32,715 nucleotides of DNA from a plasmid. The stretch lies in the NCBI RefSeq assembly GCF_053078305.1, contig NZ_CP166878.1, one strand, 5' to 3'. Positions 1 to 32,689 of this stretch are shown in pieces (position 1 is the first letter of the stretch; every line of letters starts with the position of its first letter). A program made the position numbers and the translations under genes. The notes under the pieces were generated by a model that was not told where the DNA came from, searched no databases, and worked only from the letters and a program-made list of their open reading frames with translations.

Positions 1-1866
1 ATGCAAGCAAATGATGAGTTTCTTCGCTTGGTTTTTGAAAACATATGGCCATGGTGGACATATGCCTGGGTTTTAGTTTTTTCTTTGTTATGTGTGTTTA
101 CATTTTCGGGTCATGCAGAAAAAAGTGGTGATAAGAGTACTCTGCGTTTCATTATTGAAGCAGCCAGGAAGAAATTACTTGTTGCATGGATTTTATGTAC
201 TCTTTTGTTCTTTCTATTTGTGTACATAATAGCGTGGAAACACTTTGGGGAAGATTCACATAAAGCATCACTTTATATGGAGTTATTGTATGAGCGGATT
301 GGTGACAAATCTTTCTCATTTGGTGATTATTGTGGTATAGCATTTGTGCTACTTTTTCCCTATGCCTGTCAGATAATTAATCGCCGTCTTATAAGACCAA
401 AACTATCATCATGGCTTCGTCGTTTTCGTGTGTCTCAGACCTCGGATACTATGAGTGATATTCGTGTTGAGAAAGGTAAATATTCGCCTAAAAACTTCAA
501 TCCTTTAGATTATTATAAGGATGGTCATTTCTTTTTAGGATTAGATGAAAATGATAAAGCAATCTACGTTACAGATGACTATTTGTCTAAAGTAAATATT
601 AAAATTTTAGGCGCAACGCAAACGGGTAAAGGTGTTATTCAGGGGGTTATTGCAGACCAGGCAATATTGAAAAATTGGGGTTTGTGGTTCTGGGATCAGA
701 AACCAGATAAATTTATTTACTCGATTATGAAACAACGTTGTGAGTCAGAGGGGCGAGAAATATATGAAGTTGATTTGAATGGTGAAGGTATAGGTGATTA
801 TGCGCCATTTAAGAATGGTACAAAACGTGAAATTTTGGATAGGTTTTTTAATGCGTTTTCTCTTGAGACTGGCGGGACTGATGCAGACTATTACAAAAAT
901 AATGCACAGGAGGTTATGTACTATATATATACTTTTTGGGACCGTTCGTTAAACGATTTACAAAAATTGTTGTCTGGTAGTGATGATAGAATACCGGAGG
1001 AAAAACAGGAATGGATAGCTAAAAATGGAGCTAATATTCGAACGCAGCTTAATAAATGGTTAGAGCTTCCTTGTCTATCTCCCGCTGATGGTCAGGGATT
1101 AAATGTAACTGAACTGGTTAAGTCAGGTGCGGTTATTTATGTAAAAGGTAGCACAAAAGATAAGGTTGTCAGGGCTGTCTTAAAATCAATGTTGCGTGAG
1201 TGGTCTGCGGCTGTTATTCGTGAACAACCAAAAAATCATGTGTTGGGGATAATTGATGAGGCCCGTTTTGTTATCTCGTCAGAGGTTGCTGATAGTCTGG
1301 CAACTATATTATCCTCAAATGCAAGTTTGTCTATTGCATATCAAGAGAGAGATGACCTTTTAAATATACCGGATGAAAAACCGCAGATTGCTCAGTCAAT
1401 AAAAAAAGGGACGGAAACAAATACCAATTTGACACTTGTTTATCGTTGTAATGACGAGACGGCTGAATGGGTTGCCAAAAATTCTGGTACAACTGCGAAG
1501 AGTCTGACAAAACTTGAAGAAGTCGAAACTGACGGTTATGGCGCGGAAACATGGAAGGGACGACGAATGATTGGACAGGAAGAGGATTACTATATACCAG
1601 TAAATACGGTTCTTGCAGTTGAAGAACGAGTTGGTATTATGCAGACTATGTTTGAACTCAGTCGGGTTTTATTTACATGCTGGGTTCCTGTTCAACGTTT
1701 TTATACACTTCCGGCCCGCCCTCAAACGGAGCACGATAATGTTCAGGATTGTATAAAGAATGATGGTTCAATTTCTCCGAGTGATGAGGATTACTTTAAT
1801 CCTGACATGATTAGTGATGAAGAGCTAGCGATGATAAATAAAACAGTATCGTCAGACAGTAAATAA
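1..1866 (+). CDS. virD4: Type IV secretion coupling protein (VirD4/TraG-family ATPase)
   Basis: 621-aa ORF with Walker A-like GATQTGKG and Walker B-like hydrophobic-DE (LGIIDEARFV), N-terminal hydrophobic segments. ORF begins at window edge, so the true start may lie upstream. Confidence 0.7.
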   Translation: MQANDEFLRLVFENIWPWWTYAWVLVFSLLCVFTFSGHAEKSGDKSTLRFIIEAARKKLLVAWILCTLLFFLFVYIIAWKHFGEDSHKASLYMELLYERIGDKSFSFGDYCGIAFVLLFPYACQIINRRLIRPKLSSWLRRFRVSQTSDTMSDIRVEKGKYSPKNFNPLDYYKDGHFFLGLDENDKAIYVTDDYLSKVNIKILGATQTGKGVIQGVIADQAILKNWGLWFWDQKPDKFIYSIMKQRCESEGREIYEVDLNGEGIGDYAPFKNGTKREILDRFFNAFSLETGGTDADYYKNNAQEVMYYIYTFWDRSLNDLQKLLSGSDDRIPEEKQEWIAKNGANIRTQLNKWLELPCLSPADGQGLNVTELVKSGAVIYVKGSTKDKVVRAVLKSMLREWSAAVIREQPKNHVLGIIDEARFVISSEVADSLATILSSNASLSIAYQERDDLLNIPDEKPQIAQSIKKGTETNTNLTLVYRCNDETAEWVAKNSGTTAKSLTKLEEVETDGYGAETWKGRRMIGQEEDYYIPVNTVLAVEERVGIMQTMFELSRVLFTCWVPVQRFYTLPARPQTEHDNVQDCIKNDGSISPSDEDYFNPDMISDEELAMINKTVSSDSK

Positions 1867-5508: not shown

Positions 5509-8109
5509 ATGGGGCAGAGCTATAACGAACATCTGAATCTGGCAGGCATCGAACAACATTCCGGGCAGGTGTATACCTATACTGGAGGTGCTTTTGGTGC
5601 TATTGAACTGACAGGTGTTGATCCAACGGGTGTTACCCCTTCTCAGGGTAGCCGTATTTCTTTATTACTTCGTAATATCGTTCAGTTACTGCCCCTTTCT
5701 GTCACACTGACTCAGTATTATATCCATAATGACGGCGTTAAGATCCGGCTGACAGGGCGTGATAATCAACGCAGTCAGTTACTTTCTATGCGTCGCCAGG
5801 CATATCTTAATAAATGTCGTAATTTAAATGCCTCAAGAATTATATGGACGCTGGATGTTCACCCGGAAGAGAATATTAATCGCCTGGCATCTGCCGAGTT
5901 TTTAAAGAATCTTTTTAACAGCATGTTTGATGACACAGCCAGACGTAAAGTCAGGCTGGCACTGTCAAATCGCGAATCGTTTATCATTGAGCGTCAGGCA
6001 TTTGAAAAACAGTGCCTGTTGCTGAAAGAAACATTACGCGATCTGGACTTACGCCTTTCTTTTATTTCAGAAGATAACAGGATTCTTGATTCAGAAGGGA
6101 TCTGGCGATTACAGAAGTTCCTTGCAACATTTAATCACCATTGGCTGGCTCCACGCCGTAAGGTCACTGTACCCAATGATATGTGGGATTGTCTGGCGAT
6201 TGAAGGTGACGATATCGAGGCCATTACCTGGCGTGGCGTTGATATGTTGAAGATCCAGGGGGTACGGCCTGTTTATGTTCGCCTGGCCAGTGTGTTGAAA
6301 ATAGGCGATGAATCTGTACCGGAATGTGCCTGGGCGCTGACAAATGGCAGACCAGTTTTACAGCGGGGTAACTACGTTTACTTCATGCGGTTCACTCCCG
6401 CCAGTGCCTTTAAGAAGTCACTGATGATCAGCGGGAAAGAAAACGAACTTGTCAGGACTCAAATCAGTTTGAGCGATTTAATGACTGACAGTACGAGCAA
6501 AGATATTCTCGATGAAAAATTGCGCAGAAATTCACATCTGATGAAGATGCGCGAAGAACTGGAGAATATTTCATATTCAGATGAGCGCCTGGGGATCTGC
6601 CAGGCCGGGATTGCTGTATTTAATACAGATCCCGATAAATTACTTGAGACTTGTGCGGATATTAACCGTAGTGTCTCTCAGACCATGCAAGTTGTATGGG
6701 AGACGGTAGCACAACTGGATGCTTACAAGGTTATGCAACCAGCCTACTCACGCAATACATTTCGTGCATTACAGCTTAACGCATCTCAGATGGGGGCGGC
6801 ATCCTTGTTCTTTAAATCCCATCCAGGTATTCCTGAATGGGAGCTAAATGGACGCATGGAGGAAGCCTTCTATATTCTTGAATCAGATGATGGCGTGCCG
6901 TTTTTCTTTACGCCAAAAGTTAAAGAAAAGCTACTGCTTCTTGGTAATGGGGCGACCCGTGGCGGCAAGACTTTTATGAAAAACTGTATTGCCAGCCATT
7001 TTATTAAATTCGGTGGTCTGTATAACTGTCTGGATATCGATCCTGGCTCTATCCCAATGGCTAATTTCTTTGGGGATGATGGGGCAGCATTTACCCTTGA
7101 TAGCGATTTTCAGTGTGGTTTTAACATGTTCAGTATGGCGCAAAGCAAGGATGACAGGGTATTTCTTGCGCATCTTATAGAGCAGTTAAAAGCAATGGCA
7201 GCAGAAAATGACAGTGAGCAGGATAAATATTTAACGCCTGATGAACTTGAAAATATAACAGTGTGTGCGAGTGATCTTCTTGTACAAAAATTTTCGCCGA
7301 ATGAGGGGCGTTTAAGCTCAATCACGTTGTCAACGCTGGTTTCTAAGTGTGGTCAGAGCGTTAAACGCAAGTTAGCGCCATTTATTAGTAATGGTATTTA
7401 TGGACGTTTATTTGATAACAAAGAGGACGCGATTGGTGTTCTTGATAAGCCGGTAGCTGTTTACAACCTTTCAGGTGTGAAAGATAACCATAATCTTGCG
7501 CGGCTTGTGCACCGTGAAATCTTCTTTCGTGTCGTTCGTTTGTTTGAATCACCGGAATATCGCACGATACCAAAGTTTTTTGAAATAGATGAGGCACAGT
7601 ACACCCTGTCTGTACCACATGCCGCAGAGTTCGCTACACAGAAAGCCCGAACCTGGTTTAAGCATGGTGGGGGTATGGGATTCTGGACTCAGAACCCGGA
7701 GCACTATTCATCACTGGATGAGTGGACTACGTTACGTTCCTCGGCGTCGGTGTTTATCTTTATGCCGGATAATGAGGCAACAGTTAAAGCATTCCATGAT
7801 GCTTATGGCTTCGATGAAGAAGAAGTGAATATTATTCGCAGCCTTAAGGTAAAACAGCAGTCGTATATAAAGATCCCGGACATGCAGATTGCAAAAGTGG
7901 TGAATCTGTTTGTTGAGGCTGAACAGTATGCTGTTTGTACATCAACGTCTAATGAAGCAGCCCTGGCAGCGGAAATATGGAAACGTGAATCAGATCCCGA
8001 TGTTGCAGTGCGACAGATTGTAGAAGGTCTGATAACGAAGTGTAATAAGGACTTGATCCCAACGCCTACAGAGACTGAAAAGGATAAAACGGAGGGGTTT
8101 TTCTTATGA
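5509..8109 (+). CDS. virB4: VirB4-family T4SS ATPase
   Basis: 866-aa ORF, Walker A GNGATRGGKT, size and position typical of VirB4/TrbE; RBS GAGGTGA. Confidence 0.9.
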   Translation: MGQSYNEHLNLAGIEQHSGQVYTYTGGAFGAIELTGVDPTGVTPSQGSRISLLLRNIVQLLPLSVTLTQYYIHNDGVKIRLTGRDNQRSQLLSMRRQAYLNKCRNLNASRIIWTLDVHPEENINRLASAEFLKNLFNSMFDDTARRKVRLALSNRESFIIERQAFEKQCLLLKETLRDLDLRLSFISEDNRILDSEGIWRLQKFLATFNHHWLAPRRKVTVPNDMWDCLAIEGDDIEAITWRGVDMLKIQGVRPVYVRLASVLKIGDESVPECAWALTNGRPVLQRGNYVYFMRFTPASAFKKSLMISGKENELVRTQISLSDLMTDSTSKDILDEKLRRNSHLMKMREELENISYSDERLGICQAGIAVFNTDPDKLLETCADINRSVSQTMQVVWETVAQLDAYKVMQPAYSRNTFRALQLNASQMGAASLFFKSHPGIPEWELNGRMEEAFYILESDDGVPFFFTPKVKEKLLLLGNGATRGGKTFMKNCIASHFIKFGGLYNCLDIDPGSIPMANFFGDDGAAFTLDSDFQCGFNMFSMAQSKDDRVFLAHLIEQLKAMAAENDSEQDKYLTPDELENITVCASDLLVQKFSPNEGRLSSITLSTLVSKCGQSVKRKLAPFISNGIYGRLFDNKEDAIGVLDKPVAVYNLSGVKDNHNLARLVHREIFFRVVRLFESPEYRTIPKFFEIDEAQYTLSVPHAAEFATQKARTWFKHGGGMGFWTQNPEHYSSLDEWTTLRSSASVFIFMPDNEATVKAFHDAYGFDEEEVNIIRSLKVKQQSYIKIPDMQIAKVVNLFVEAEQYAVCTSTSNEAALAAEIWKRESDPDVAVRQIVEGLITKCNKDLIPTPTETEKDKTEGFFL

Positions 8110-8924
8110 GAAAACAACTTGCAGTAGTCTTGTTTTCTGTAATGACAGGATTGATTACAACACCTGCTATTTCTGGCGTTCCTGTTGCGGATGCTGCTCA
8201 GATTCTTGGTCAGGCCAGGGCTATGATGCAGGATATCAAAAACTATAAAGAATATATGGAACAGACAATTCTCAATAATAAAGAATTGCTGGAAGCATAT
8301 AAGCAATACAACCAGATGCTTGAGGATTATAAGCAAATTTTACGTGAGGCCGAAGGGCTGAAAGATAAACTTTCATCGATTGACTATAAGAATTTTATGG
8401 ATGAAATAGCCCTTATCTCTAACCAGTTCGATCCCGTTTATGGCGGGGGGCGTATGGTTAAAAATACGGGTAATGCGCCGTGGGATAAAGCCTATGAGCG
8501 TAATTTGTTGCTTAATGGCTATGGGCTTACAAACGAAGAATATGCCGAAATGCTGGCAGCGATACCATATACGAGTGATGACCGCGAACGTGCCCGGCAG
8601 ATGTTTGAATATAGGCAGCGCAGGGTTGTTGAAGGGATTTCAAAAGATGCCTTTGTTGGTGAATTGCAAATACAATTAAAAAAGCAAGGAAAAACTCTAG
8701 GGGAATTACAGGAAAGACGTTTAAGGTTAGGTGATAACGATACGACAGCCTCTATCCAGTTTTTAGCTGAACAAAATGAACAACTGTTACAACAAATTCA
8801 GAGTTTACAGTTACAGCAAGCAGAGGCGATGAAATATAGTGGTCGTCTTGAGGATCACTATTTTAACAAGCGAGCGCAACAGGAAGAATTAAAGGCACGT
8901 CAGTTACAGAGGGCATGGCAATGA
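8106..8924 (+). CDS. VirB5-like secreted helical protein (minor pilus subunit candidate)
   Basis: Start overlaps virB4 stop (ATGA); signal peptide; helical/coiled-coil-rich 272 aa; positional inference. Confidence 0.5.
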   Translation: MRKQLAVVLFSVMTGLITTPAISGVPVADAAQILGQARAMMQDIKNYKEYMEQTILNNKELLEAYKQYNQMLEDYKQILREAEGLKDKLSSIDYKNFMDEIALISNQFDPVYGGGRMVKNTGNAPWDKAYERNLLLNGYGLTNEEYAEMLAAIPYTSDDRERARQMFEYRQRRVVEGISKDAFVGELQIQLKKQGKTLGELQERRLRLGDNDTTASIQFLAEQNEQLLQQIQSLQLQQAEAMKYSGRLEDHYFNKRAQQEELKARQLQRAWQ

Positions 8925-9388
8925 AAAAATATCTGATTCTTTTCTTCATGATGTTTTCAGCCTCGGCAATGGCTAAGATTGGCTATGTTGATGAGCATCA
9001 AAAGGAAGTTGACCTAAAAATTGACGCTCTGATTTCTAAATATGAAAAAGAATGTGAAGGTAAACGCAATAGTAATATGTGTAAATCCCAGGCATGGGAT
9101 AAGGCTCATTTTGAATATGAAGATGAATTTAGAGGCGAAGATAAATATAATCATAAGCATTATGATGGCCTGACAAAAGATCAGGCAGTCGCGAAGTTAC
9201 ATGAACTTATTAAATTGCATAATATTGTTTCTAAAGATGAACGCAATCCTGAAAGTTGGCCTGGAAAATTAGACACACTAACTATTAATGGTGAGATTAA
9301 CTATATAGTTAGAAAACACTGGCCAGCATGGATTAATCCATGTGATAAGATTTGTGCGGAACTGTTACTTAGACAAATAGGTAAATGA
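8921..9388 (+). CDS. Secreted protein between virB5- and virB6-like genes (possible entry-exclusion protein)
   Basis: Signal peptide MKKYLILFFMMFSASAMA; the equivalent position holds eex in pKM101-type clusters; function is inferred only from position. Confidence 0.4.
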   Translation: MKKYLILFFMMFSASAMAKIGYVDEHQKEVDLKIDALISKYEKECEGKRNSNMCKSQAWDKAHFEYEDEFRGEDKYNHKHYDGLTKDQAVAKLHELIKLHNIVSKDERNPESWPGKLDTLTINGEINYIVRKHWPAWINPCDKICAELLLRQIGK

Positions 9389-9429
9389 TGTAGCGTTTAA
9401 CAGGCTATATCTTTAATTTGGGGGCTATT

Positions 9430-10419
9430 ATGCTTCGAGGATTCTTTTTGTCTTTAATTAACAGACTCTTATTTGTAGTCCTGTTTTTATCTGTCTCATT
9501 TTATGCCAGTGCAGAAACAGCTATGCGCACAAACTTTCAGAATGGCGTAAGTGAGATGGTTAATAAAATACTAAATAGCCCGGATAGTGATTTACGTGTC
9601 TGGACTATTGCCGCATCAACTTTCCTGGCTGCGGTAACGGCATTCGTCTATTTCTGGCGGTTCGTGGAAAATGGTGGGGCGTTAGTTGATTTATTCACGC
9701 TTGCAATCATGTTTATGTTATCAATGTCATTGCTTGCTTCTTACTCAATGGTTGTTGATACTATCACAGGCGCTTTTTATGCGATATCAAATACACTACA
9801 GAAACTGGCGTTAGGTAATATTAAGCCGAGTTTTCTGCAAAATTTTGTAGAGGGCGTGTTAACAAAGGCTATTTCAGCACCATCGGTTGATATTTTTGAT
9901 GGCATGAATATGGTTGGCATGGCGCTCTTGTGGGAAATATGTTCTGCTATTTTGTCTGTTGCTATATATCTTGCTGATGTTTGGATTGATGTTGGGACAG
10001 CAATAGCAAAAATTACAGGTGTTATGTTTATTCCTTTTTTGGTTGCGCCAGCAACAAGAGGAATTTTTGATGGATGGTTTAAATTCTATATTGGATGGGG
10101 GCTTGCAGCGGTTGTACTTAAAATAACATCTATTGTGGTAATGATAATGATCAGGGCATCAATTAACTCTGCGGGTAGTTTCCAGGGCGCTGGCGATGTT
10201 ATCGCGTCAGATGGTACTGTTAATGGCGTTCTTAATATAACAGCTAATAATATCAGCTTGTTACGTGATATTTGTGCATATTCTGTAATCGCTGCAATTA
10301 TGGTGTTCAGTTGTTTTATATTTGCGTACATGATTGGTTCTGGTGTCGGCTCTGCAAGTCAGGGTTTGAATAATATGGCAGTAAAACTAGCCAAGAAAGC
10401 GGCTAAAGCATTATTGTAA
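9430..10419 (+). CDS. virB6: VirB6-like polytopic inner-membrane protein
   Basis: About 330 aa with multiple hydrophobic helices; ATG 9430 after GGGGG RBS (ORF track starts at TTG 9418). Confidence 0.65.
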   Translation: MLRGFFLSLINRLLFVVLFLSVSFYASAETAMRTNFQNGVSEMVNKILNSPDSDLRVWTIAASTFLAAVTAFVYFWRFVENGGALVDLFTLAIMFMLSMSLLASYSMVVDTITGAFYAISNTLQKLALGNIKPSFLQNFVEGVLTKAISAPSVDIFDGMNMVGMALLWEICSAILSVAIYLADVWIDVGTAIAKITGVMFIPFLVAPATRGIFDGWFKFYIGWGLAAVVLKITSIVVMIMIRASINSAGSFQGAGDVIASDGTVNGVLNITANNISLLRDICAYSVIAAIMVFSCFIFAYMIGSGVGSASQGLNNMAVKLAKKAAKALL

Positions 10420-10428
10420 GGTGAACGT

Positions 10429-11148
10429 ATGCTGCTTGAAAAAAAAGAAGTCGAAAAAGTAAATCGCACAGCCTTTAAGGATCGTGTTGGTGAACTAAAA
10501 AAAGACAGAAATTTGTTTTTCTGGATTGCCTTGCTTCTTGCCGGGACGACGATATATCAGTCATATTCTGTTCAGGAGGCAATAGAGAAAAGCCAGAATA
10601 CTACAGAAGTAGTATGGGTGAAATTATTGCCTGATGGTTCACATAAAATATCACAATTTACGCCAGACAATGAGCAGCCTATATATACACCAACAGTGAA
10701 CTCATTGCTGTCAAAGTATATGCAGAAGCGCTATGGACAGTTAAAAGAGACTATAGAACGGGATTATGCAGAAGCGGCAGTATTTATGTCTCCTGTACTT
10801 ACAGGGGAGTTTGCCGATCCCAAAGGGTTTAATGTCGCTCAGAAAGTTGTGGATATTCAGGCCGATATGGCAGCAAAAAGGATTGATATAGAAATAAAAG
10901 ATATTGACCATTATGACGCGATAGAAGGTCAGTTTGATGGTGATGTCAAACCTGTAATTCGAACGCTTGTTACTTATCAGGAGATAACAAGGGATTATCA
11001 GGGTAAAGAAATTTCATCGGTTCAACAAATGAGGCGTCTTCAATGGACGTTGTTACAACGTAACGAACTTAGTAAACAATCGCTGGACTGGCTTAACATC
11101 AATCCGCTGGGAATCCAGATTATTGATGATAAATCCGTACAACAGTAA
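10429..11148 (+). CDS. virB8: VirB8-like bitopic protein
   Basis: 239 aa, single N-terminal TM (LFFWIALLLAGTTIY), periplasmic domain; position after the virB6-like gene. Confidence 0.65.
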   Translation: MLLEKKEVEKVNRTAFKDRVGELKKDRNLFFWIALLLAGTTIYQSYSVQEAIEKSQNTTEVVWVKLLPDGSHKISQFTPDNEQPIYTPTVNSLLSKYMQKRYGQLKETIERDYAEAAVFMSPVLTGEFADPKGFNVAQKVVDIQADMAAKRIDIEIKDIDHYDAIEGQFDGDVKPVIRTLVTYQEITRDYQGKEISSVQQMRRLQWTLLQRNELSKQSLDWLNINPLGIQIIDDKSVQQ

Positions 11149-11160
11149 AGGAACTTAATC

Positions 11161-11994
11161 ATGTTAGCGAAAAGAACTCTCTTATTTTCTGGAGTCCTGG
11201 CTGTTGTCATGACTACGTTCAGTGCAACAGCACAGCAATGTAGAGTGGTTAACTGGCGGCCTGGAACAATAGTTAAAGTGCAGTCCGCTTTATATCTGGG
11301 AACTCGTATAGAACTGCCGGAAGGCTCAATGTTATTAACGAAAGAACCCTTTTCTTCTAATGCGCTATGGGCCAGCACGGGAGCCGCAAATCAGGTCATG
11401 ATTCAGCCTACCAGCGAAGAGCCGGAAGGGCTGAAAACGATGGTAACAGTATTTATGACTAACGGGCAGACGCTGGATATTGAGGCTGTTCGGGTATCTC
11501 AGAACCAGAATCAACAGTGTGTTCAGATCCGTGGTGCAGGTATGCGTTCCGCAGACAGAAGTGCATTAAACACGGCTTACAGTATGGGAGCATCCGGGGC
11601 TGATGTGGCTCGTTTACAGAATGAAGTGAATACATTGCGGAGTAACAGAGAAAGCGAAGTCAAAAACGCAGTTCTTGAAGCTCTTCGTCGATACCGATAT
11701 TTCATTTATACCCGTTATAACTGGACGACAGGTAAAGGTTTTAGCGGAAAGAATATGATCTCTGATGTTTATGATGACGGGCGTTTTACTTATATCCGTA
11801 TCGCAAAACCGAATCGTGGATTACTTGCGGTACATGCAGATGTCGGAGGAAAACCAGCGGTTATTCCTACCAAGTACGACGATGCATATGCCATTTATCA
11901 TATGTCAGGGATATATCCCAAATTTACCCTTACCCTGGATGGCGTAAAGCTGGAAGTCAGCCGTGCGGATAATGCGACTGATGGGGAGAGCTAA
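11161..11994 (+). CDS. virB9: VirB9-like outer-membrane channel subunit
   Basis: Signal peptide, 277 aa, C-terminal beta-rich region; order B8-B9-B10. Confidence 0.7.
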   Translation: MLAKRTLLFSGVLAVVMTTFSATAQQCRVVNWRPGTIVKVQSALYLGTRIELPEGSMLLTKEPFSSNALWASTGAANQVMIQPTSEEPEGLKTMVTVFMTNGQTLDIEAVRVSQNQNQQCVQIRGAGMRSADRSALNTAYSMGASGADVARLQNEVNTLRSNRESEVKNAVLEALRRYRYFIYTRYNWTTGKGFSGKNMISDVYDDGRFTYIRIAKPNRGLLAVHADVGGKPAVIPTKYDDAYAIYHMSGIYPKFTLTLDGVKLEVSRADNATDGES

Positions 11995-11996
11995 TT

Positions 11997-13403
11997 ATGG
12001 AAGAACGTCAGGAGAAAGTAGAAGAAAAACCAGCTACTTACCGTAAAAAAATACAGTATTACGCTTTTGGTACTTTTGGTGTGATCCTGGTAATTCTTTT
12101 TATCAATATGGTGATAAGTATTGCCTCAAGGAACGAGGAAGAACCAAAGGAAAATGCGAAACAGGAAACTGCCAGCACTGCGCCAAATACAACGGAAAAG
12201 TTTAATGCGTTACTGAAAAACAGTGGTGCACGTCCTTCTGCCTCCGTTAATCAGGCTAATACGGTTGGAAATAAGGATAGTGCCAGTAATGGAAATCCGA
12301 ATAGTGAAACAGATAAAAAACCTGTTCACCCTTACAGCCGGGAAAAAGAGGCGTCTCAGGAGAGGGGGGCGAGAGCAAGTGATGCGGGGTCACCTGATGA
12401 AATCAGGGCACGCTTTAAGGCTGATGAGATTAACCGAGCACTGCGTGCCAGGTCAGATAAAACAAATTTTGACAGCACTAAAAATACGGTTGCGGGTAGT
12501 GGTAATGCATATGCCCCGGCAGCATCGTTTACCGGAAACCGGACTAATGCGCAGCGTATCAGCGATATAAACGCAGAGCAGAATGGATTGCAGGAACGTA
12601 TCCAAATGATGGAATCAAAAGTTCGTGCTGATGAAGCCGCTTTGCCTGGACGACTGGAAGAAGCCCGGATACGTGGGGAACAGCAATTTGCAGAAGCCCG
12701 ACAGGGTGGAGCAGGAAGTAACGCGACATCGGTAACTAAGGGGAGTACCCAGAGCGTACCGTCCGGTGTTGTGGGATATACAGCCAGTAATCCTTATGGG
12801 GCAAGTGTTGATGGAATGATGAAGTTGCCAGTAGGTACGGTCCTGAATGCCATTACCACATTTACGGCTATTTCTGATTATTCCGGCGGCTCAATGAAGG
12901 CCATGCTTACGCATGATATCTATGATGCGACGCATAGCTACATTCTTGCGCCTAAAGGAAGTGAGTTCGTTATCAGGGTCGTTAAAGCCTCCCAGGTAAA
13001 CGAAATCCTTCAAAGCCGTATTGGATTCCAGGTTACATGGCTTGTATTGCCTGATGGTAACAGGGTCGATTTTAAAACCTCGTCGTCTCTTGACCGAATG
13101 GGGACTCCGGCGGTTGAAGGCGATGAGGTGGACAGGCATTTGCTCGCTCAGTTTCTTGGCGTAGCGGCCTATGCCCTTGTGGGGACGAAAACCAGCTACG
13201 AAGGCTCAGGTGATAGTAACGAGAGTTTTGCCGGGAATTTTGGCGAAGGCGCTCGTACTCAGGCAGGAAATATCGCTCAAAAATACCTCCAGGTTGTGCC
13301 TACAACAACGTTACATGCGGGAGCACCGATCAGGGTCTTTACCGAAGATGAGATATACATGAAGCCGTGGAGAAATATTTATGAAACGGATTATACGGGC
13401 TGA
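11997..13403 (+). CDS. virB10: VirB10-like protein
   Basis: 468 aa, N-terminal TM, Pro/Glu/Ala-rich linker, C-terminal beta-barrel-like domain. Confidence 0.75.
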   Translation: MEERQEKVEEKPATYRKKIQYYAFGTFGVILVILFINMVISIASRNEEEPKENAKQETASTAPNTTEKFNALLKNSGARPSASVNQANTVGNKDSASNGNPNSETDKKPVHPYSREKEASQERGARASDAGSPDEIRARFKADEINRALRARSDKTNFDSTKNTVAGSGNAYAPAASFTGNRTNAQRISDINAEQNGLQERIQMMESKVRADEAALPGRLEEARIRGEQQFAEARQGGAGSNATSVTKGSTQSVPSGVVGYTASNPYGASVDGMMKLPVGTVLNAITTFTAISDYSGGSMKAMLTHDIYDATHSYILAPKGSEFVIRVVKASQVNEILQSRIGFQVTWLVLPDGNRVDFKTSSSLDRMGTPAVEGDEVDRHLLAQFLGVAAYALVGTKTSYEGSGDSNESFAGNFGEGARTQAGNIAQKYLQVVPTTTLHAGAPIRVFTEDEIYMKPWRNIYETDYTG

Positions 13404-13875
13404 AATATTGTTTTTTGCTGCATTCTTTGCATTTTCCTGTCAGGCAGCAAGAAGTCCTTTCCAGGTAGACAGGATGCGAGAAAGTGCGCCTGTTCAGATA
13501 TCACAGCAGGATGTGCATGTGCAGGGAAACTTTCAGGAGTTACAACCACTGGACAGGAACCAGAAAGATCCTCGCTGGCAGTATATCGATCCGTTGAGTG
13601 TTTACATGCGTACAGTTTGGCCCGATAACATCAGGACTATCAGAGCAGCGGTGAACTATCTCCTTGAACCAACAGGATATCGCCTGGTAACGAGTCATCC
13701 GGCACCGCGTGAGGCTTCCCTTCTTGTTGATAAGCCATTACCGCCAATTGCCAGAATGCAACGCACAATGCCCGTAGTTGATGCTCTTCAGTTGCTGGTT
13801 GGGCTTGATAATTATGTTGTTATTGATCGTGCCCACAGGCTGGTTTCATTTCAGAAAAATGGGGGCGGTGTATGA
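13381..13875 (+). CDS. Hypothetical exported protein within T4SS cluster
   Basis: Signal peptide MKRIIRAEILFFAAFFAFSCQA; 164 aa; overlaps virB10 end by 23 nt; no family recognised. Confidence 0.45.
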   Translation: MKRIIRAEILFFAAFFAFSCQAARSPFQVDRMRESAPVQISQQDVHVQGNFQELQPLDRNQKDPRWQYIDPLSVYMRTVWPDNIRTIRAAVNYLLEPTGYRLVTSHPAPREASLLVDKPLPPIARMQRTMPVVDALQLLVGLDNYVVIDRAHRLVSFQKNGGGV

Positions 13876-14096
13876 AGGAATGGTGTATGCGGATTATTTT
13901 TGTTGCTTTCCTGGCTATTGCAACGGTGATTCTTTGCTTATTTATGACGGGGTGTGCACAACGTTATGAGAGTGGTCATGATCAGCTTTTCGAACTGTCA
14001 GAACGCCATATCATTTACCGGGATCTGACTGTTCCGGCATCGATGAGCAATTTGCCGGAGAAGCAGCAGATAAGCGTACCGGGGATTGAGCCGTGA
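13872..14096 (+). CDS. Small lipoprotein (VirB7-like candidate)
   Basis: Lipobox LFMTGC after hydrophobic leader; 74 aa; start could instead be ATG 13887. Confidence 0.45.
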   Translation: MKEWCMRIIFVAFLAIATVILCLFMTGCAQRYESGHDQLFELSERHIIYRDLTVPASMSNLPEKQQISVPGIEP

Positions 14097-14770
14097 ACGT
14101 CCGGTTAATTTTCATGCTGGCGTTTCTGATATCTGGCGGTATCAGCGCATCAACGGATGAAGAAATTCTACTGGCGTCGATAACCGCGCCAGGAGTTACC
14201 AGCTTTACCGATGAATCACCTTCTTCGGAATGGATTACAGCGATGCAGGGACGTTGGGGGAGTACAACTGATATGAAGGATATGCGTAGTTTGCGCGAGA
14301 TAAGAGAAGCGGTGATTGCTGAAATTAATGCCGTATCAGAGCCGGTGGTGGAGAAAACAGGGCCAGAAAACAAAGAATCGACCACAGGAATAAAAATATC
14401 TGAAAAAATACAGGCGATAATCAATAAATACGCAGAAAAATATCAAATTAGTGAAACTTTGTTGAAAGCGTTAATTAAAACGGAGTCTGGATTTAATCCA
14501 AACGCTGTCAGCAGAAAAGGTGCAAAGGGACTGATGCAGTTAATGCCTGTACATACCAAAAGGCATAATGCTGATCCCTTTGATGTTGAAACCAATGTGA
14601 AAATTGGTACAGGGCATCTTTCATATCTTCTCGATAAATACGGGGATTTACGGCTTGCTCTGGCTGCATATAACGCTGGGGAAGGTGCTGTTGATAAATA
14701 TGGCGGTATCCCCCCTTATAAGGAAACACAACAGTATGTAAATAAGATCATGGCAATGTTAGGAGGTTAA
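14093..14770 (+). CDS. virB1: Lytic transglycosylase (VirB1-like, SLT domain)
   Basis: SLT catalytic motif region ALIKTESGFNPNAVSRKGAKGLMQLMP and AYNAGEGAV; GTG start. Confidence 0.8.
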   Translation: MNVRLIFMLAFLISGGISASTDEEILLASITAPGVTSFTDESPSSEWITAMQGRWGSTTDMKDMRSLREIREAVIAEINAVSEPVVEKTGPENKESTTGIKISEKIQAIINKYAEKYQISETLLKALIKTESGFNPNAVSRKGAKGLMQLMPVHTKRHNADPFDVETNVKIGTGHLSYLLDKYGDLRLALAAYNAGEGAVDKYGGIPPYKETQQYVNKIMAMLGG

Positions 14771-14772
14771 AT

Positions 14773-15132
14773 ATGACAAAAATAAAGATACTGATATTTG
14801 CAGCTTTTGTCTCATTTGGAACCGTGCATAGCGCCAGCGCGGAAAATGGAAGTGATGCTCTGTCACTGACAGGAGAATTTCTTGAGCAACCTGTTAACAG
14901 TAGTGATCCATGTACTGTTTTTCTCTGTATGGCTGGAATGCTTAAGGGGGAATCGCCTGGTGAATGTAGTGGGGCAAAGAAAAAATTTTTCAGCATTATC
15001 AAAAGGAAGCATGGCAGTTTTCATCCAGGAAGAACATTTAATGCCCGGAAAGCGTTTCTTGGTGATTGTCCGTCAGCACCTGGAGATATTGTAGGCAAGA
15101 TACTTGATAAATACGGAAAATTACGCTGGTAA
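14773..15132 (+). CDS. Hypothetical Cys-rich exported protein
   Basis: Strong AGGAGG RBS, signal peptide ending HSASA; 119 aa; unknown function. Confidence 0.5.
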   Translation: MTKIKILIFAAFVSFGTVHSASAENGSDALSLTGEFLEQPVNSSDPCTVFLCMAGMLKGESPGECSGAKKKFFSIIKRKHGSFHPGRTFNARKAFLGDCPSAPGDIVGKILDKYGKLRW

Positions 15133-15147
15133 CAGAAGGGGTAAACA

Positions 15148-15591
15148 GTGGCAAGAAAAGGTGTAAATGAAGTCACCCTAGTTGGTTTTGTTGGTAATGC
15201 TCCGGTGATATCTCAGGCCAGTAGCGGGGATAAGATCGCGGTTATTTCCGTTGCAACAACTGAAACATGGACGGACAGAAAGACAGGTGCTGAAAAAGAG
15301 AAAACCGAGTGGCATCGAGTTGTTATTTTCGGAAAAACAGCTGAGATAACGGAACAATATGTAAAAAAAGGCACATTGCTGTACATTCGCGGGAAACTGC
15401 AAACCCGTAAGTGGCTGGACCGAGACAATATAGAGCGTTACAGCACGGAAATTATTGTTAATCCGGCAGGGGGAGAAATGCAGATGCTGGGGAGTCGCCA
15501 GGATAAAGTAACCGGAGGAAAAGCCGGAAACGACATTCCTGAAAATGGCGCTGGCAGTACGGACAAGCAGCAAAGCAATGAAACCGACTAA
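15148..15591 (+). CDS. ssb: Single-stranded DNA-binding protein (plasmid SSB)
   Basis: OB-fold region matches the SSB family (MARKGVNEVTLVGFVG..., TEWHRVVIFGK, LQTRKW); C-terminus ends QQSNETD with no DDDIPF-type tip. Confidence 0.9.
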   Translation: MARKGVNEVTLVGFVGNAPVISQASSGDKIAVISVATTETWTDRKTGAEKEKTEWHRVVIFGKTAEITEQYVKKGTLLYIRGKLQTRKWLDRDNIERYSTEIIVNPAGGEMQMLGSRQDKVTGGKAGNDIPENGAGSTDKQQSNETD

Positions 15592-15611
15592 CGCGCCTTC
15601 GGCTTGTTCAA

Positions 15612-15665
15612 CCCCGGAGTCACTCAGAAGCAAGTTCCGAGTGACCCCGGCGTTTTTGGTTTTTA
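15612..15665 (+). terminator. Rho-independent terminator after ssb
   Basis: 12-bp stem CCGGAGTCACTC / GAGTGACCCCGG followed by CGTTTTTGGTTTTT. Confidence 0.75.
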
Positions 15666-15818
15666 CTACGGGGATGATAATACCCATGAGGTTGATACTT
15701 GGCAGAGTCAGCTTGTGGGCATTATCAGGGGACTATAAAAGCCCATTTAAATTGTATTTAAATCATCCGGTAACGGCAAGAAAAATAATGTGTCATTCAG
15801 GCATAAGTGCAGGGCCAT

Positions 15819-16787
15819 ATGATTAGTCCGGCAATTGATTATTTTGCGGCAAACTTGCCATACCGACCTTATCACGCGAATGAATTGCTCTATGGGCTTC
15901 GTATCGATAAGGCAGCTAAAGCAGTGCTGGCGCGTTATATACAGCATAATCCACCTCATGCAATGTACTGGCTTGTTTTTGACGTTGACAGGCCAGTTGC
16001 GGCGATTGACTGGAATGATCTTAATGCGCCCACACCTAATTTTACGGTCAAAAATCCGGTTAATGGTCATGCACACCTGTTTTATGGGTTAAAAACGGCA
16101 GTTCGTGTTGCCAAAGACGGTAGCATTAAGGCGATCGAGTTTGCTGCTGCGGTAGAGCGAGGATTACGTGACAAACTTAAATCAGATATCGGCTATGCAG
16201 GGCTGATCTGTAAAAATCCTCTCCATACATGCTGGCAGGTTGTTGAATGGCGTGGAGAACTTTATGAGTTAGCTGAACTGGCTGATTATGTTGATTTGTA
16301 CGCGTCAACAGCGGCTAACGATGAACAGGCATTCGATATCGACTTTAGTTATGGGCTTGGGCGAAATTGTTGGCTCTTCAATCTGACCCGTATCTGGTCA
16401 TATACAGCAATCCGGCAGGGCTGGCCTGATTTCCCGCAATGGAAAGAAGCGGTGATTCAGCGTGTCGAAATGTATAACGTGCAGTTAAGCGTGCCTTTGT
16501 CTCACAAAGAATGTGTATGCATTGGCTCCAGCATCGCCAAATGGACGCATAGACGCTTCACTGAAGCTGGATTTGAGCAATATGTAGCTGATACCCATAC
16601 ATCAGAAATTCAGGCTCGTAGAGGGCGTAAGAATCGCTCAGAAGTGCAGGCTGCTAAGGGGCGTAAAGGTGGGAAAATATCTAAAAGAGGGATTGTTGAG
16701 GATTCTGCGCGGAGTTTGAAACCGTGGGTAGAGTTAGGGATCAGTCGGGCAACCTATTATCGACGTAGGGCAAATGAGACCAAATAA
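15819..16787 (+). CDS. ColE2-type plasmid replication initiator (primase-type Rep, Replicase family)
   Basis: N-terminal region YRPYHANELLYGLRIDKAAKAVLARYIQHNPPHAMYWLVFDVDR is characteristic of ColE2-like Rep proteins as I recall them; basic HTH-like C-terminus; origin-like sequence overlaps the stop. Confidence 0.65.
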   Translation: MISPAIDYFAANLPYRPYHANELLYGLRIDKAAKAVLARYIQHNPPHAMYWLVFDVDRPVAAIDWNDLNAPTPNFTVKNPVNGHAHLFYGLKTAVRVAKDGSIKAIEFAAAVERGLRDKLKSDIGYAGLICKNPLHTCWQVVEWRGELYELAELADYVDLYASTAANDEQAFDIDFSYGLGRNCWLFNLTRIWSYTAIRQGWPDFPQWKEAVIQRVEMYNVQLSVPLSHKECVCIGSSIAKWTHRRFTEAGFEQYVADTHTSEIQARRGRKNRSEVQAAKGRKGGKISKRGIVEDSARSLKPWVELGISRATYYRRRANETK

Positions 16788-17649: not shown

Positions 17650-17710
17650 CAACCCCCTGATATCTCTCTTAGAGCTTTTGCGGGGCCAAAGAAGATAATC
17701 AGGGGGTCCA
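17650..17710 (+). promoter_or_regulatory. Long stem-loop in repA leader (candidate antisense-RNA target)
   Basis: Arms CCCCCTGATATCTCTCTT / AAGAAGATAATCAGGGGG around an 18-nt loop containing GCCAA (one base off the conserved IncFII/IncB loop hexamer); location upstream of leader peptide and repA. Confidence 0.45.
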
Positions 17711-17743
17711 AAGCAGGCTTTTGCCTGTAAAGGATTATAGCAA

Positions 17744-17800
17744 ATGCATTTTTCAATACAAGACTACTGCCCGGCAATAAGTGCGGGCGGTGGTGGCTGA
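17744..17800 (+). CDS. Leader peptide overlapping repA start (translational coupling candidate)
   Basis: 18-codon ORF MHFSIQDYCPAISAGGGG whose stop lies 17 nt inside repA, the arrangement seen for tap/repY-type leader peptides. Confidence 0.45.
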   Translation: MHFSIQDYCPAISAGGGG

Positions 17801-18506
17801 AAAGAACAATTCCTTAATCCCCCGCATATCGCCGTCAGGGGTGGCCAAACAAAGTCCATGCTATAACGTTGTGTCGCGTAAGCGACGCCGTTTCCTCAAT
17901 CGCTGGATTAAATCGCTGGCGACGGTCGCTGGGCGTGTCAAAATCAAAAACGAACTCCGCCGCCGTATCCGGCATAACCGATATTGGGTTAATGAGGCTA
18001 ACAAGTTTGGCATAGAGGCACTTTGCGAACTGATGTTAGCTATCCTGGATGATCTCGATTTACGCTCCTGGGAAACCAGGCATAACCTCGAAACACTGGC
18101 AGAACGTGCCGGACTGGTGACACGCAGTGACGCGGGGCGTAAATCTATTTCCCGTGCCAGTAGGGGATGTGATCGCCTGGTCTGGTTGAATGCGATCATT
18201 ACAGATAAAGCGCCGTTTAACCCCTATGATGCACGGTGTGCCTGTAAACACATTGAAGTAACCGAAGACTTCTTTGCCATACTCGGCATTCCGTTAAAAC
18301 TGGTTTATCGGGAACGTGCCAGGCTGTTAAAGGCAGATCCTAATGAAATGATTTACTCCGGGGATGCCAGACTGATAGCTATCAGAGTCCAGAACTGGAC
18401 ACGGAAAGCGGCAGCCGGATTAGCCCGGATGAAAGCGAAACGCGACGCAGCTCGACAACGCAAAAAAGAATATTACGCTCACCCACCTACCCCTATTCCG
18501 GTCTGA
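17781..18506 (+). CDS. repA: IncFII-family replication initiator RepA
   Basis: Segment LETLAERAGLVTRSDAGRKSISRASRGCDRLVWLNAIIT aligns with the RepA1 core of R100-type proteins (SITTLAIECGLATESAAGKLSITRATRALTFLSELGLIT); GTG start right after an in-frame stop. Confidence 0.75.
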   Translation: MRAVVAEKNNSLIPRISPSGVAKQSPCYNVVSRKRRRFLNRWIKSLATVAGRVKIKNELRRRIRHNRYWVNEANKFGIEALCELMLAILDDLDLRSWETRHNLETLAERAGLVTRSDAGRKSISRASRGCDRLVWLNAIITDKAPFNPYDARCACKHIEVTEDFFAILGIPLKLVYRERARLLKADPNEMIYSGDARLIAIRVQNWTRKAAAGLARMKAKRDAARQRKKEYYAHPPTPIPV

Positions 18507-30974: not shown

Positions 30975-31885
30975 AAGAGGACGAAAAAGAGGAAACATGA
31001 ATGTTTCCTCTGCCATGTTACTACCGTGAATTTTCAGCTACTTATCTGTACTGGTTGCCTCCAGTATTTTCAGATTCATCTACAGACTTCGGCTATATCG
31101 TCTGTAGATTTTTGCGCCTACTCGTTCACTCTCCCACACTCAGGAATGTAATTTCGGTGCCACCCGAAATTTTCCAGAGTGCTTCCCACGTTAGCTGATC
31201 TTGTCGGGATAACCCGCCACTGGCTCAGACAAACTACTAGGCTACGCCTTACCATTTCTGGCTTTCAGGGGGCCGAGATTCCAAAGCACCTCCCTTACTC
31301 ATAATTTGCCGTCAACACCATAGCCAGACACTTAAGTCATGGCTGGTTATCACTTACCCGAATGCGACCTCTTCGGACGCAATTACAGGCTTGAGCTTTA
31401 CAGCGATCTGCAAAGGTTGCCCCTCACAGTACCGACGTTTCCAGGTTTCCCCTCAACGCCCTGACACCTCACGATGCCCTCAGCAGCCCACCTGTCGGGA
31501 ATATGTTGTACCTTCTCAAGCACCCCATATTCGGGATTTTCACCCGTTCAAGATCAACAGGGATCACGTAGTCACCTACGTTCCCGTTTCCGTGTCGCCC
31601 AGTCTCACGCTTTGGCGTGGATTGGGTCGGACAGGGGAGTTTCACCCCCGAACGCCCTTCGTAGCCGTACCAGCCCAATTACAGGCATACGGCTTCGGCA
31701 GTAACTGTTATCAGGGTTGGCAGTCCTGATAACTCACCTTCGTTTGGCAGACGAAGGCTTTTGGCTTTTTTCGTCTTTCGACTTCCCAAAAATGCGTCGA
31801 GAGTTGGCAGCTCGCAACGCACGTTTTGTTACGTAAGCGATGCTTGATAGTCCGGCGCCCGAAAGGCTCGCATCGAGCCGGACAT
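30975..31885 (-). ncRNA. Candidate ~900-nt structured non-coding RNA (unclassified)
   Basis: ORF-free, G-rich on the minus strand; minus-strand sigma70-like promoter (-35 TTGCGC, 17-bp spacer, -10 TATTAT at 31918-31890) and a minus-strand terminator (GAGGAAACAU-UC-AUGUUUCCUC then UUUUU) at 31003-30975; many internal hairpins. Confidence 0.3.
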
Positions 31886-31996
31886 CAGTATAATATTTAA
31901 CCTGTAAGCGCAGCGCAAGGAATCTCTTTATAAGGTATTCCCATATGTTGATTTCTTTTATGTAGCGGTTACTACATAGCTTTTATGAGGATTTCG

Positions 31997-32689
31997 ATGA
32001 TTTACCGTTTTAAAACCGATTTTATGCGTCAGATAGCCATGCTGTTTTCGCTGGGATATACAAGGTGGTTTGGTGGCGAAATTCCTCTAAACCCTCACTA
32101 TAAATTCGTGTCACTAAAAGCACGTTTTGATGAACTCTACGCTATCAATGCAACAGCACAACAACGTTTCAGGAGAAGAGAAAAAGGAGTAGCAAACTGC
32201 AAATTTCTTGTCTGGTTTGATGAAAAAAATGCAACTCTTTTATGGGTGTTACTTGCAACAGAAGGGGATGTATACAATGAAGAGAAATTTTATGATGGTA
32301 TGAATAAAAAAACTCGTATTTCTGTTTCAGGTTATGAACTAAAAACAGTTCCACATCGAGGTAGAAAACCTAGCGTTTCATGGGCTATGAAGAAAGAAAC
32401 TTATGAAAAGTGGCATGCGGATATAAAGAAGTCGATAAGAACAAGAAATGATGAGAATATAGAAAAATTATGGTATTCACTCAGGAGGGTGGCAGGGTTT
32501 AGTGAGTTACGTAGACAGGTATTTAAGTTACAGAGATATGCAATGACAGAGTGGAAACGCTCCAGAAGAGGTGAATATCCTTATGAGAAGATTTTTGTTG
32601 GATGGTTAGGACGATTTAAACAAAGTGAAACCATCACAGATGAAGAGCTTTTGTTAATATCGAAGTCAAAAAAAGCTGATATCTTTTAG
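31997..32689 (+). CDS. Hypothetical protein (about 230 aa), basic/aromatic-rich
   Basis: ORF with GAGGA RBS before ATG 31997 (track start 31985); preceded by inverted repeat ATGTAG-N6-CTACAT; no family recognised. Confidence 0.5.
   Translation: MIYRFKTDFMRQIAMLFSLGYTRWFGGEIPLNPHYKFVSLKARFDELYAINATAQQRFRRREKGVANCKFLVWFDEKNATLLWVLLATEGDVYNEEKFYDGMNKKTRISVSGYELKTVPHRGRKPSVSWAMKKETYEKWHADIKKSIRTRNDENIEKLWYSLRRVAGFSELRRQVFKLQRYAMTEWKRSRRGEYPYEKIFVGWLGRFKQSETITDEELLLISKSKKADIF

Follow-up and report, generated by a model that had tools for sequence, protein, structure and literature searches.

A plasmid-encoded single-stranded DNA-binding protein lacking the C-terminal docking tip at the end of a type IV secretion gene row in Escherichia coli

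The window analysed here, a stretch of 32,715 nucleotides, represents essentially the whole of a ~30 kb plasmid. It carries a VirB-like type IV secretion system (T4SS) set, including VirB11 (1923–2987) and a co-directional, tightly packed T4SS row (5509–15591). According to Pfam and RefSeq, the row comprises VirB4 (5509–8109, plus strand), followed by TrbL/VirB6, VirB8 and CagX/VirB9, then TrbI/VirB10 (11997–13403, plus strand) and a PilL-like gene, an SLT transglycosylase (14093–14770, plus strand), a TrbM-like gene (14773–15132, plus strand; stop codon at 15130–15132) and, as its last member, ssb. The ssb coding sequence (15148–15591, plus strand, coordinates including the stop codon; ORF list, Pfam, TIGR and RefSeq) has a GTG start and specifies 147 amino acids. 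A Shine-Dalgarno-like AAGGGG, read from the sequence, is located at 15136–15141 (plus strand), 6 nt 5′ of the GTG. We take this start to be correct, since the N-terminus MARKGVNEV agrees with MANKGVNEV of the nearest relatives (pattern MA[RN]KGVNEV). An antisense ORF of 169 codons (15178–15687, minus strand) that spans nearly all of ssb is without supporting evidence and is probably spurious. Downstream of ssb are the gene for a 326-aa Replicase-family PF03090 protein (15807–16787, plus strand; Pfam E = 3.8e-43; “replication initiation protein” in RefSeq), a PilI-like gene, and the gene for an IncFII-type RepA (17781–18506), which is preceded by an Rfam PK-repBA pseudoknot (17651–17778, 86 bits). 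The window has these two replication-type genes (PF03090 and RepA); the sister plasmids described below carry one or the other. No relaxase or coupling protein was recognisable by Pfam, RefSeq or a PDB sequence search of the large unannotated ORFs, and MOB-suite assigns the plasmid family to the class “non-mobilizable” despite the full VirB-like set.

The ssb product belongs to the bacterial SSB family: Pfam PF00436 matches over residues 6–113 (E = 3e-31; 108 bits, cut-off 26), TIGR00621 matches with 131 bits (cut-off 54), and phmmer aligned the protein to the E. coli SSB structures 1EQQ/1EYG with E = 2e-39. Residues W41, W55, H56, F61 and W89 correspond to W40, W54, H55, F60 and W88 of E. coli SSB; the alignments show that the ssDNA-stacking aromatics (W, W, F, W) and the tetramer-interface His are all kept. 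An AlphaFold2 model based on 35 homologues shows an OB barrel (residues 4–116, pLDDT >94). From the 1EQQ alignment, the family alignment, the model and the point at which DNA homology ends, the OB-fold ssDNA-binding/tetramerisation domain was assigned to residues 1–116 (15148–15495, plus strand). The first-pass annotation had called the OB fold clearly that of an SSB, and each of these lines of evidence supports it. RefSeq holds the identical 147-aa coding sequence, already annotated as ssb (WP_000101376.1); a literature search for WP_000101376 found no publication.

The C-terminus of the protein reads ...GNDIPENGAGSTDKQQSNETD followed by the stop codon, the final residues being QQSNETD. In place of a terminal Phe with free carboxylate preceded by Pro, the protein ends in N-E-T-D, and in place of an Asp/Glu run before I/L-P-F, the acidic residues of the tail are scattered (E145, D147) with no D-D-D block; the net charge of the tail is about −2. 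The motif [DEN]x[ILVMP]P[FYW] is absent from all three forward frames between 15440 and 15830, an interval that covers 240 nt downstream of the stop codon. The absence of the acidic, IPF-type tip, which had been claimed from the letters of the window, was thus confirmed by direct reading of the C-terminus, the frame scan and the RefSeq coding sequence, and a tip in an alternative frame, named beforehand as a finding that would overturn the claim, did not turn up in this interval. The suggested alignment against chromosomal and plasmid SSBs found mostly tip-bearing relatives of a tipless window protein. Among the best 120 homologue clusters at 90% identity, 104 end in x-[ILVMP]-P-F and 6 contain an internal tip followed by an extension; the 10 with neither include 4 that are the window protein itself or fragments of it. 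Judged from these sequences, absence of the tip is unusual among close relatives. In a representative library at 50% identity, 60 of 148 sequences were without the canonical end, mostly obvious frameshift or chimera sequences; this library is enriched in frameshifted singletons and unsuited to estimating tip frequency.

Plasmids of Salmonella enterica and from metagenomes, here called sister plasmids, have the same gene order as the window (...TrbI-PilL-SLT-TrbM-SSB). Their SSBs (145–156 aa) are ~55–62% identical to the window SSB in the multiple alignment and 62–68% identical in BLAST local alignments, and have the C-termini FNDEIPF, FDDQIPF, ESDEVPF, FDDQLPF and DDPPPF. The Salmonella sister SSBs (clusters P0004–P0013) resemble the window protein in position (SLT-TrbM-SSB), OB fold and length. 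In contrast, D-x-[IVL]-P-F closes their sequence and cargo genes come next, whereas the window SSB has an unrelated tail ending in NETD and its frame runs straight into a conserved downstream module. Since sister plasmids of the same synteny encode tip-bearing SSBs, the tip loss is derived and occurred on the branch of the E. coli plasmids. No SSB relatives of 68–99% identity, which would represent intermediates, were present among the homologues found.

Residues 117–147 (SRQDKVTGGKAGNDIPENGAGSTDKQQSNETD; 15496–15588, plus strand) constitute a lineage-specific, mildly acidic tail with no terminal Pro-Phe, predicted to be disordered (AlphaFold2 pLDDT <50 over residues 120–140). Its length of 31 residues is constant in all full-length variants listed. 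Sequence searches with the tail peptide and with 86 nt of tail-coding DNA returned no relatives outside its own lineage; derivation of the tail from a fragment of another gene was rejected, the tail search having returned solely its own fragment. DNA similarity to the sisters ends at 15491–15495, where the OB domain ends, and resumes at 15578–15588 in the conserved module. This module (15589–15664, plus strand), defined by its fold and by comparison with the sisters, is composed of a TAA stop codon (TAACGCGCCTTCGGCTTGTTCAACCCCGGAG...), a hairpin (~15610–15654; ΔG −27.8 kcal/mol, z −2.8) and a T-run (15653–15664), and looks like the terminator of the T4SS-ssb transcript. In the sisters, it is found 0.4–1.1 kb further downstream behind cargo genes, namely a 76-aa ORF, an SNase gene plus a 109-aa ORF, or a DUF1496 gene. 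The ssb frame of the window enters the module directly and takes the module TAA as its stop codon. The module copies of the window (15589–15664) and of the sister plasmids L002 (11562–11672) and L005 (10824–10890) supply the stop codons of ssb, the 109-aa ORF and the DUF1496 gene, respectively, so that TAACGCGCCTTCGGCTTGTTCAACCCCGGAG plus hairpin terminates a different upstream reading frame in each of three plasmid lineages. The sequences of these three copies differ by apparently compensatory changes in the hairpin stem, and only the window copy has the T-run. A 28-nt exact match to the module is also present on a plasmid of Duffyella gerundensis. The module marks the edge of a variable cargo slot. 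It is possible that the tail arose by deletion or recombination in this slot, or by slow erosion of the tip.

Two stretches of the tail were considered as remnants of a former tip. For NDIPE (residues 128–132), the idea that it is what D-D-I-P-F left behind after read-through is not supported: the stretch aligns with the mid-linker of the sister SSBs (QIEPDYGG / QNAPAQSG), and the variants D129E and P131L circulate. The terminal QQSNETD, read together with its stop codon as a possible point-mutated QESDEVPF plus stop, matches L005 at only 12 of 24 nucleotides, and its stop codon is part of the downstream module, found in L005 ~390 nt past the ssb stop.

The only string of the form [ILVMP]PF followed by a stop codon in the six frames of the window is RLLHSFYEDFDDLPF, located at 31966–32013 (plus strand), 16 kb away from ssb. 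Ending in EDFDDLPF, it has the appearance of a near-perfect SSB tip. It was rejected as the missing tip of ssb: the string is 15 codons long, has no start codon and is preceded by TAG, and it overlaps both the GAGGA (Shine-Dalgarno) and the ATG (31997) of the next gene, which encodes an unannotated 230-aa protein (31997–32689, plus strand). The sister plasmids do not have the string. Coincidence is the probable explanation, a relic of the lost ssb 3′ end being conceivable.

The gene for the 230-aa protein is situated 3′ of a conserved non-coding element of ~430 nt (window ~31300–31775, plus strand). Copies that are 66–95% identical to it occur on plasmids of Thiothrix, Halomonas, Azotobacter, Paraphotobacterium, Ralstonia and Paraburkholderia as well as on ~3-kb RepL plasmids of E. 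coli. It had no match in Rfam 15, even at E ≤ 1. Covariation was strong: in a 7-sequence alignment, 56 of the 114 predicted pairs had compensatory changes, 91.3% of cells were paired as against 75.6% in shuffles, and the covariation score was 0.464 as against 0.162 in shuffles (0 of 500 reached it; slid controls gave 0.04–0.11). G-U pairs and a terminal hairpin with a T-run point to the plus strand as the one on which the element is read. A profile search detected the near-full-length element in 47 of 120 species-representative loci, and in 28 of these 47 a homologue of the 230-aa protein is encoded 0.3–0.9 kb downstream on the same strand. On the 3-kb plasmids the element occurs but the protein gene does not; one strain harbours both kinds of plasmid. 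A 621-aa ORF at the other end of the window (1–1866) has no family match; its homologues adjoin the non-coding element in 4 other loci. The protein could be RT-like and the element its RNA; alternatively, the element could be a folded signal acting in cis in transfer or replication, and the protein a new Tyr enzyme. This pair may matter more than the tipless SSB.

The ssb gene was found in 14 of 5426 complete E. coli genomes, with 98.8–99.8% nucleotide identity. As the first-pass annotation had proposed, it is plasmid-borne: the carrier replicons in these 14 genomes are always 27–35 kb plasmids, and no chromosomal place was found. Ten PLSDB plasmids are 98–99% identical across the 3-kb ssb neighbourhood. 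The exact 147-aa SSB is encoded on at least 1000 public contigs, and single-residue variants on 201, 125, 79 and 73 contigs. A frameshift or sequencing error, likewise named beforehand as a way in which the claim of tip absence could fail, is not borne out, since complete assemblies made independently, and at least 1000 contigs, have the same tail. The full-length tipless ORF is present on >1500 contigs and each frameshifted form on 1–5; one of the 14 complete plasmids has an ssb annotated as “frameshifted”. The tip loss is real and stably inherited.

To what extent the gene is under selection can be read from its differences. Comparison of the window with four other complete tipless plasmids gave 6 distinct synonymous differences and no non-synonymous one in OB codons 1–115, and one synonymous and one non-synonymous change in the tail. 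Among the listed protein variants, distinct replacements numbered 9 in the 32 tail residues and 6 in the 115 OB residues (Fisher p = 0.0008), the amino-acid variation of the tail being ~5 times that of the OB domain. These patterns indicate purifying selection on the OB domain after the loss of the tip, with little constraint on the tail, and the 6:0 pattern combined with the rarity of frameshifts argues that the gene is maintained. Relative to the sisters, synonymous sites are saturated (pS 0.75–0.9; pN ~0.2), which makes the lineage an old one, whatever the date of the tip loss. With E. coli SSB as outgroup, private OB replacements numbered 13 in the window protein and 2 in the sisters (p = 0.007). 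Residues 15–35 (window 15190–15252), in the β1–β2 region, hold ten of the 13: L15V, D18A, E20V, R22S, Y23Q, P25S, G28D, A29K, V30I and L35V. The site of R22S is conserved in at least 90% of the family alignment. Relaxed constraint, altered binding, co-adaptation to the tip loss and a recombined segment are possible causes of this cluster.

Accessory SSBs without a tip, plasmid-encoded ones included, are known from other systems. The SSB of the IncP plasmid R751 (WP_000019167.1, 113 aa, ending ...DTKAPGGGQ), of which RK2 protein P116 is presumably the equivalent, resembles the window SSB in having no linker tip and in being encoded on a TrbI/TrbM-type T4SS plasmid next to a replication initiator gene (upstream of trfA in R751). 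In contrast to the window SSB, it consists of the OB fold only, has no 31-residue tail, and is transcribed with trfA, not at the end of the T4SS row. The two proteins are only 27% identical over 96 residues, and the nearest relatives of the window SSB are tip-bearing SSBs; the R751 protein is therefore considered an independent case in another clade. Similarly, Bacillus subtilis SsbB (113 aa) is, like the window SSB, a secondary SSB without an interaction tail beside a canonical SSB. SsbB protects incoming ssDNA, and its interaction with RecO was not detected (PMC3384303). It differs from the window SSB in being a chromosomal, competence-regulated protein of Firmicutes with no residual tail. 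Truncated SSBs were also reported in Anabaena (PMC3976300). The window protein shares the absence of the tip with such tail-less accessory SSBs and, unlike them, does not end right after the OB fold (~113 aa). We infer that it resembles them in function while being unrelated by descent and keeping its 31-residue tail.

The leading-region SSBs of F-like and IncI plasmids presumably keep the canonical tip. Their genes are in the leading region with psiB/ardA and ssDNA promoters, whereas the window ssb closes the T4SS row and its product is tipless; no psiB/ardA-type gene is annotated beside it (RefSeq, and Pfam of the neighbours). They are plasmid accessory SSBs tied to conjugation, as the window SSB would be, and their production or translocation reduces the SOS response to mating (PMC8406263). 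The chromosomal SSB of E. coli is ~50% identical to the window SSB in the OB domain, with the key aromatics conserved, and has a linker of ~60 residues compared with 31. Since ssb is essential in E. coli, each host is presumed to have its own chromosomal copy. The laboratory constructs SSB-deltaC8 and SSB-deltaF are the engineered analogue of the natural tipless protein; SSB without the terminal Phe or the last 8 residues no longer binds its partners and is lethal as the sole SSB (PMC10164576). The lethality of tip loss does not apply to the window SSB because this is an extra, plasmid copy.

We consider, with a probability of roughly 0.6, that this T4SS plasmid of E. coli (~30 kb) encodes a functional accessory SSB from which the SSB-Ct docking tip has been lost in this lineage. 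With the homotetramer-type OB fold kept, the protein would bind ssDNA, presumably as a tetramer. It would be made together with the mating-pair-formation genes, since ssb is the last gene in the row, starts 15 nt past the trbM-like gene and is followed by the putative terminator. It would coat single strands of the plasmid, for example the transfer strand or replication intermediates. Partners receive the canonical SSB-Ct at a hydrophobic pocket (terminal Phe), a basic lip (its carboxylate) and a basic ridge (Asp residues) (PMC10164576). All three of the corresponding determinants are missing from the plasmid SSB, so that the best-supported reading is a coat that does not recruit host partners, as had been suggested from the sequence alone; the protein would not dock in the Phe pocket and basic lip of ExoI, RecO, RecQ, RecG, PriA, chi or Pol IV, and the host’s own SSB would handle recruitment and the essential functions. 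It is conceivable that the protein forms mixed tetramers with the tip-bearing SSB of the host, or that the tail has a new partner. In F-type systems, the SOS response that mating induces is dampened by plasmid SSB, whether delivered or expressed during conjugation (PMC8406263). The window SSB may confer a similar benefit, which could be tested. A role of the protein in conjugation is only putative, since neither a relaxase nor a coupling protein could be recognised on the plasmid.

Among the observations that go against this reading are the accelerated OB replacement (13 versus 2) and the one frameshifted ssb in 14 complete plasmids. Both would be in line with a tip that was removed as a neutral by-product of rearrangement in the cargo slot, leaving a dispensable gene that has not decayed so far. 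This would also account for an ORF that stops on the TAA of a module found in the sisters 0.4–1.1 kb on, behind other genes, and for a tail without relatives that varies ~5 times as much as the OB domain. Frameshifted ssb alleles do exist, and plasmid ssb deletions were mild in other systems: knock-outs in F-like plasmids and in pCF10 had no mating defect, making dispensability plausible. However, about 3 in 4 of the OB differences should have been non-synonymous under neutrality, as against none of the 6 observed (p ~ 2e-4). Intact ORFs far outnumber broken ones, and the lineage is old (pS 0.75–0.9 versus the sisters). We regard a merely undecayed gene as unlikely, if worth keeping in view.

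A functional accessory SSB could also have profited from losing its tip. An adaptive, “insulating” coat, unable to recruit RecO/RecFOR, ExoI or RecQ, would reduce the loading of RecA and the SOS response, restrict processing by the host, or evade defence systems that sense foreign tip-bearing SSB-like proteins. DRT10 is triggered by an SSB-like phage protein whose tip reads FDDDIPF (bioRxiv 10.64898/2026.04.29.721553). The changes in residues 15–35 of the OB domain would then represent co-adaptation after loss of tip-to-OB self-binding. We hold this adaptive version to be improbable.

Alternatively, the tail may have been re-targeted to serve as a binding or export signal, for a plasmid partner such as the PF03090 protein or for T4SS translocation. 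The location of ssb between the T4SS row and the Replicase-family gene, the constant 31-residue length in the full-length variants listed, and the translocation of plasmid SSB by F-type T4SSs (PMC8406263) are in line with this idea. On the other hand, disorder is predicted for the tail, neither a conserved motif nor a homologue of it was found, and variant density is highest there, even in the NDIPE stretch (D129E, P131L); moreover, sisters with the same neighbours use an ordinary tip. Re-targeting of the tail is improbable. Finally, the chance that a frameshift from sequencing or assembly masks a normal tail, or that a tip is supplied from another frame or by recoding, is practically nil: nothing was found in its favour, with no tip motif in any frame over 15440–15830, EDFDDLPF as the sole tip-like string of the window, and a tail that is identical across the independent assemblies and contigs.

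An accessory SSB without a tip is known in kind, from the IncP SSB and SsbB, and the significance of the present case is modest in this respect. If the function proposed here holds true, the plasmid SSB would be a natural, widely circulating counterpart of the laboratory proteins SSB-deltaC8 and SSB-deltaF, and the tip-bearing sisters would provide built-in controls for what the tip costs or gains a mobile element. It would then open questions on SOS induction, on the recruitment of nucleases and on the sensing of SSBs by defence systems.
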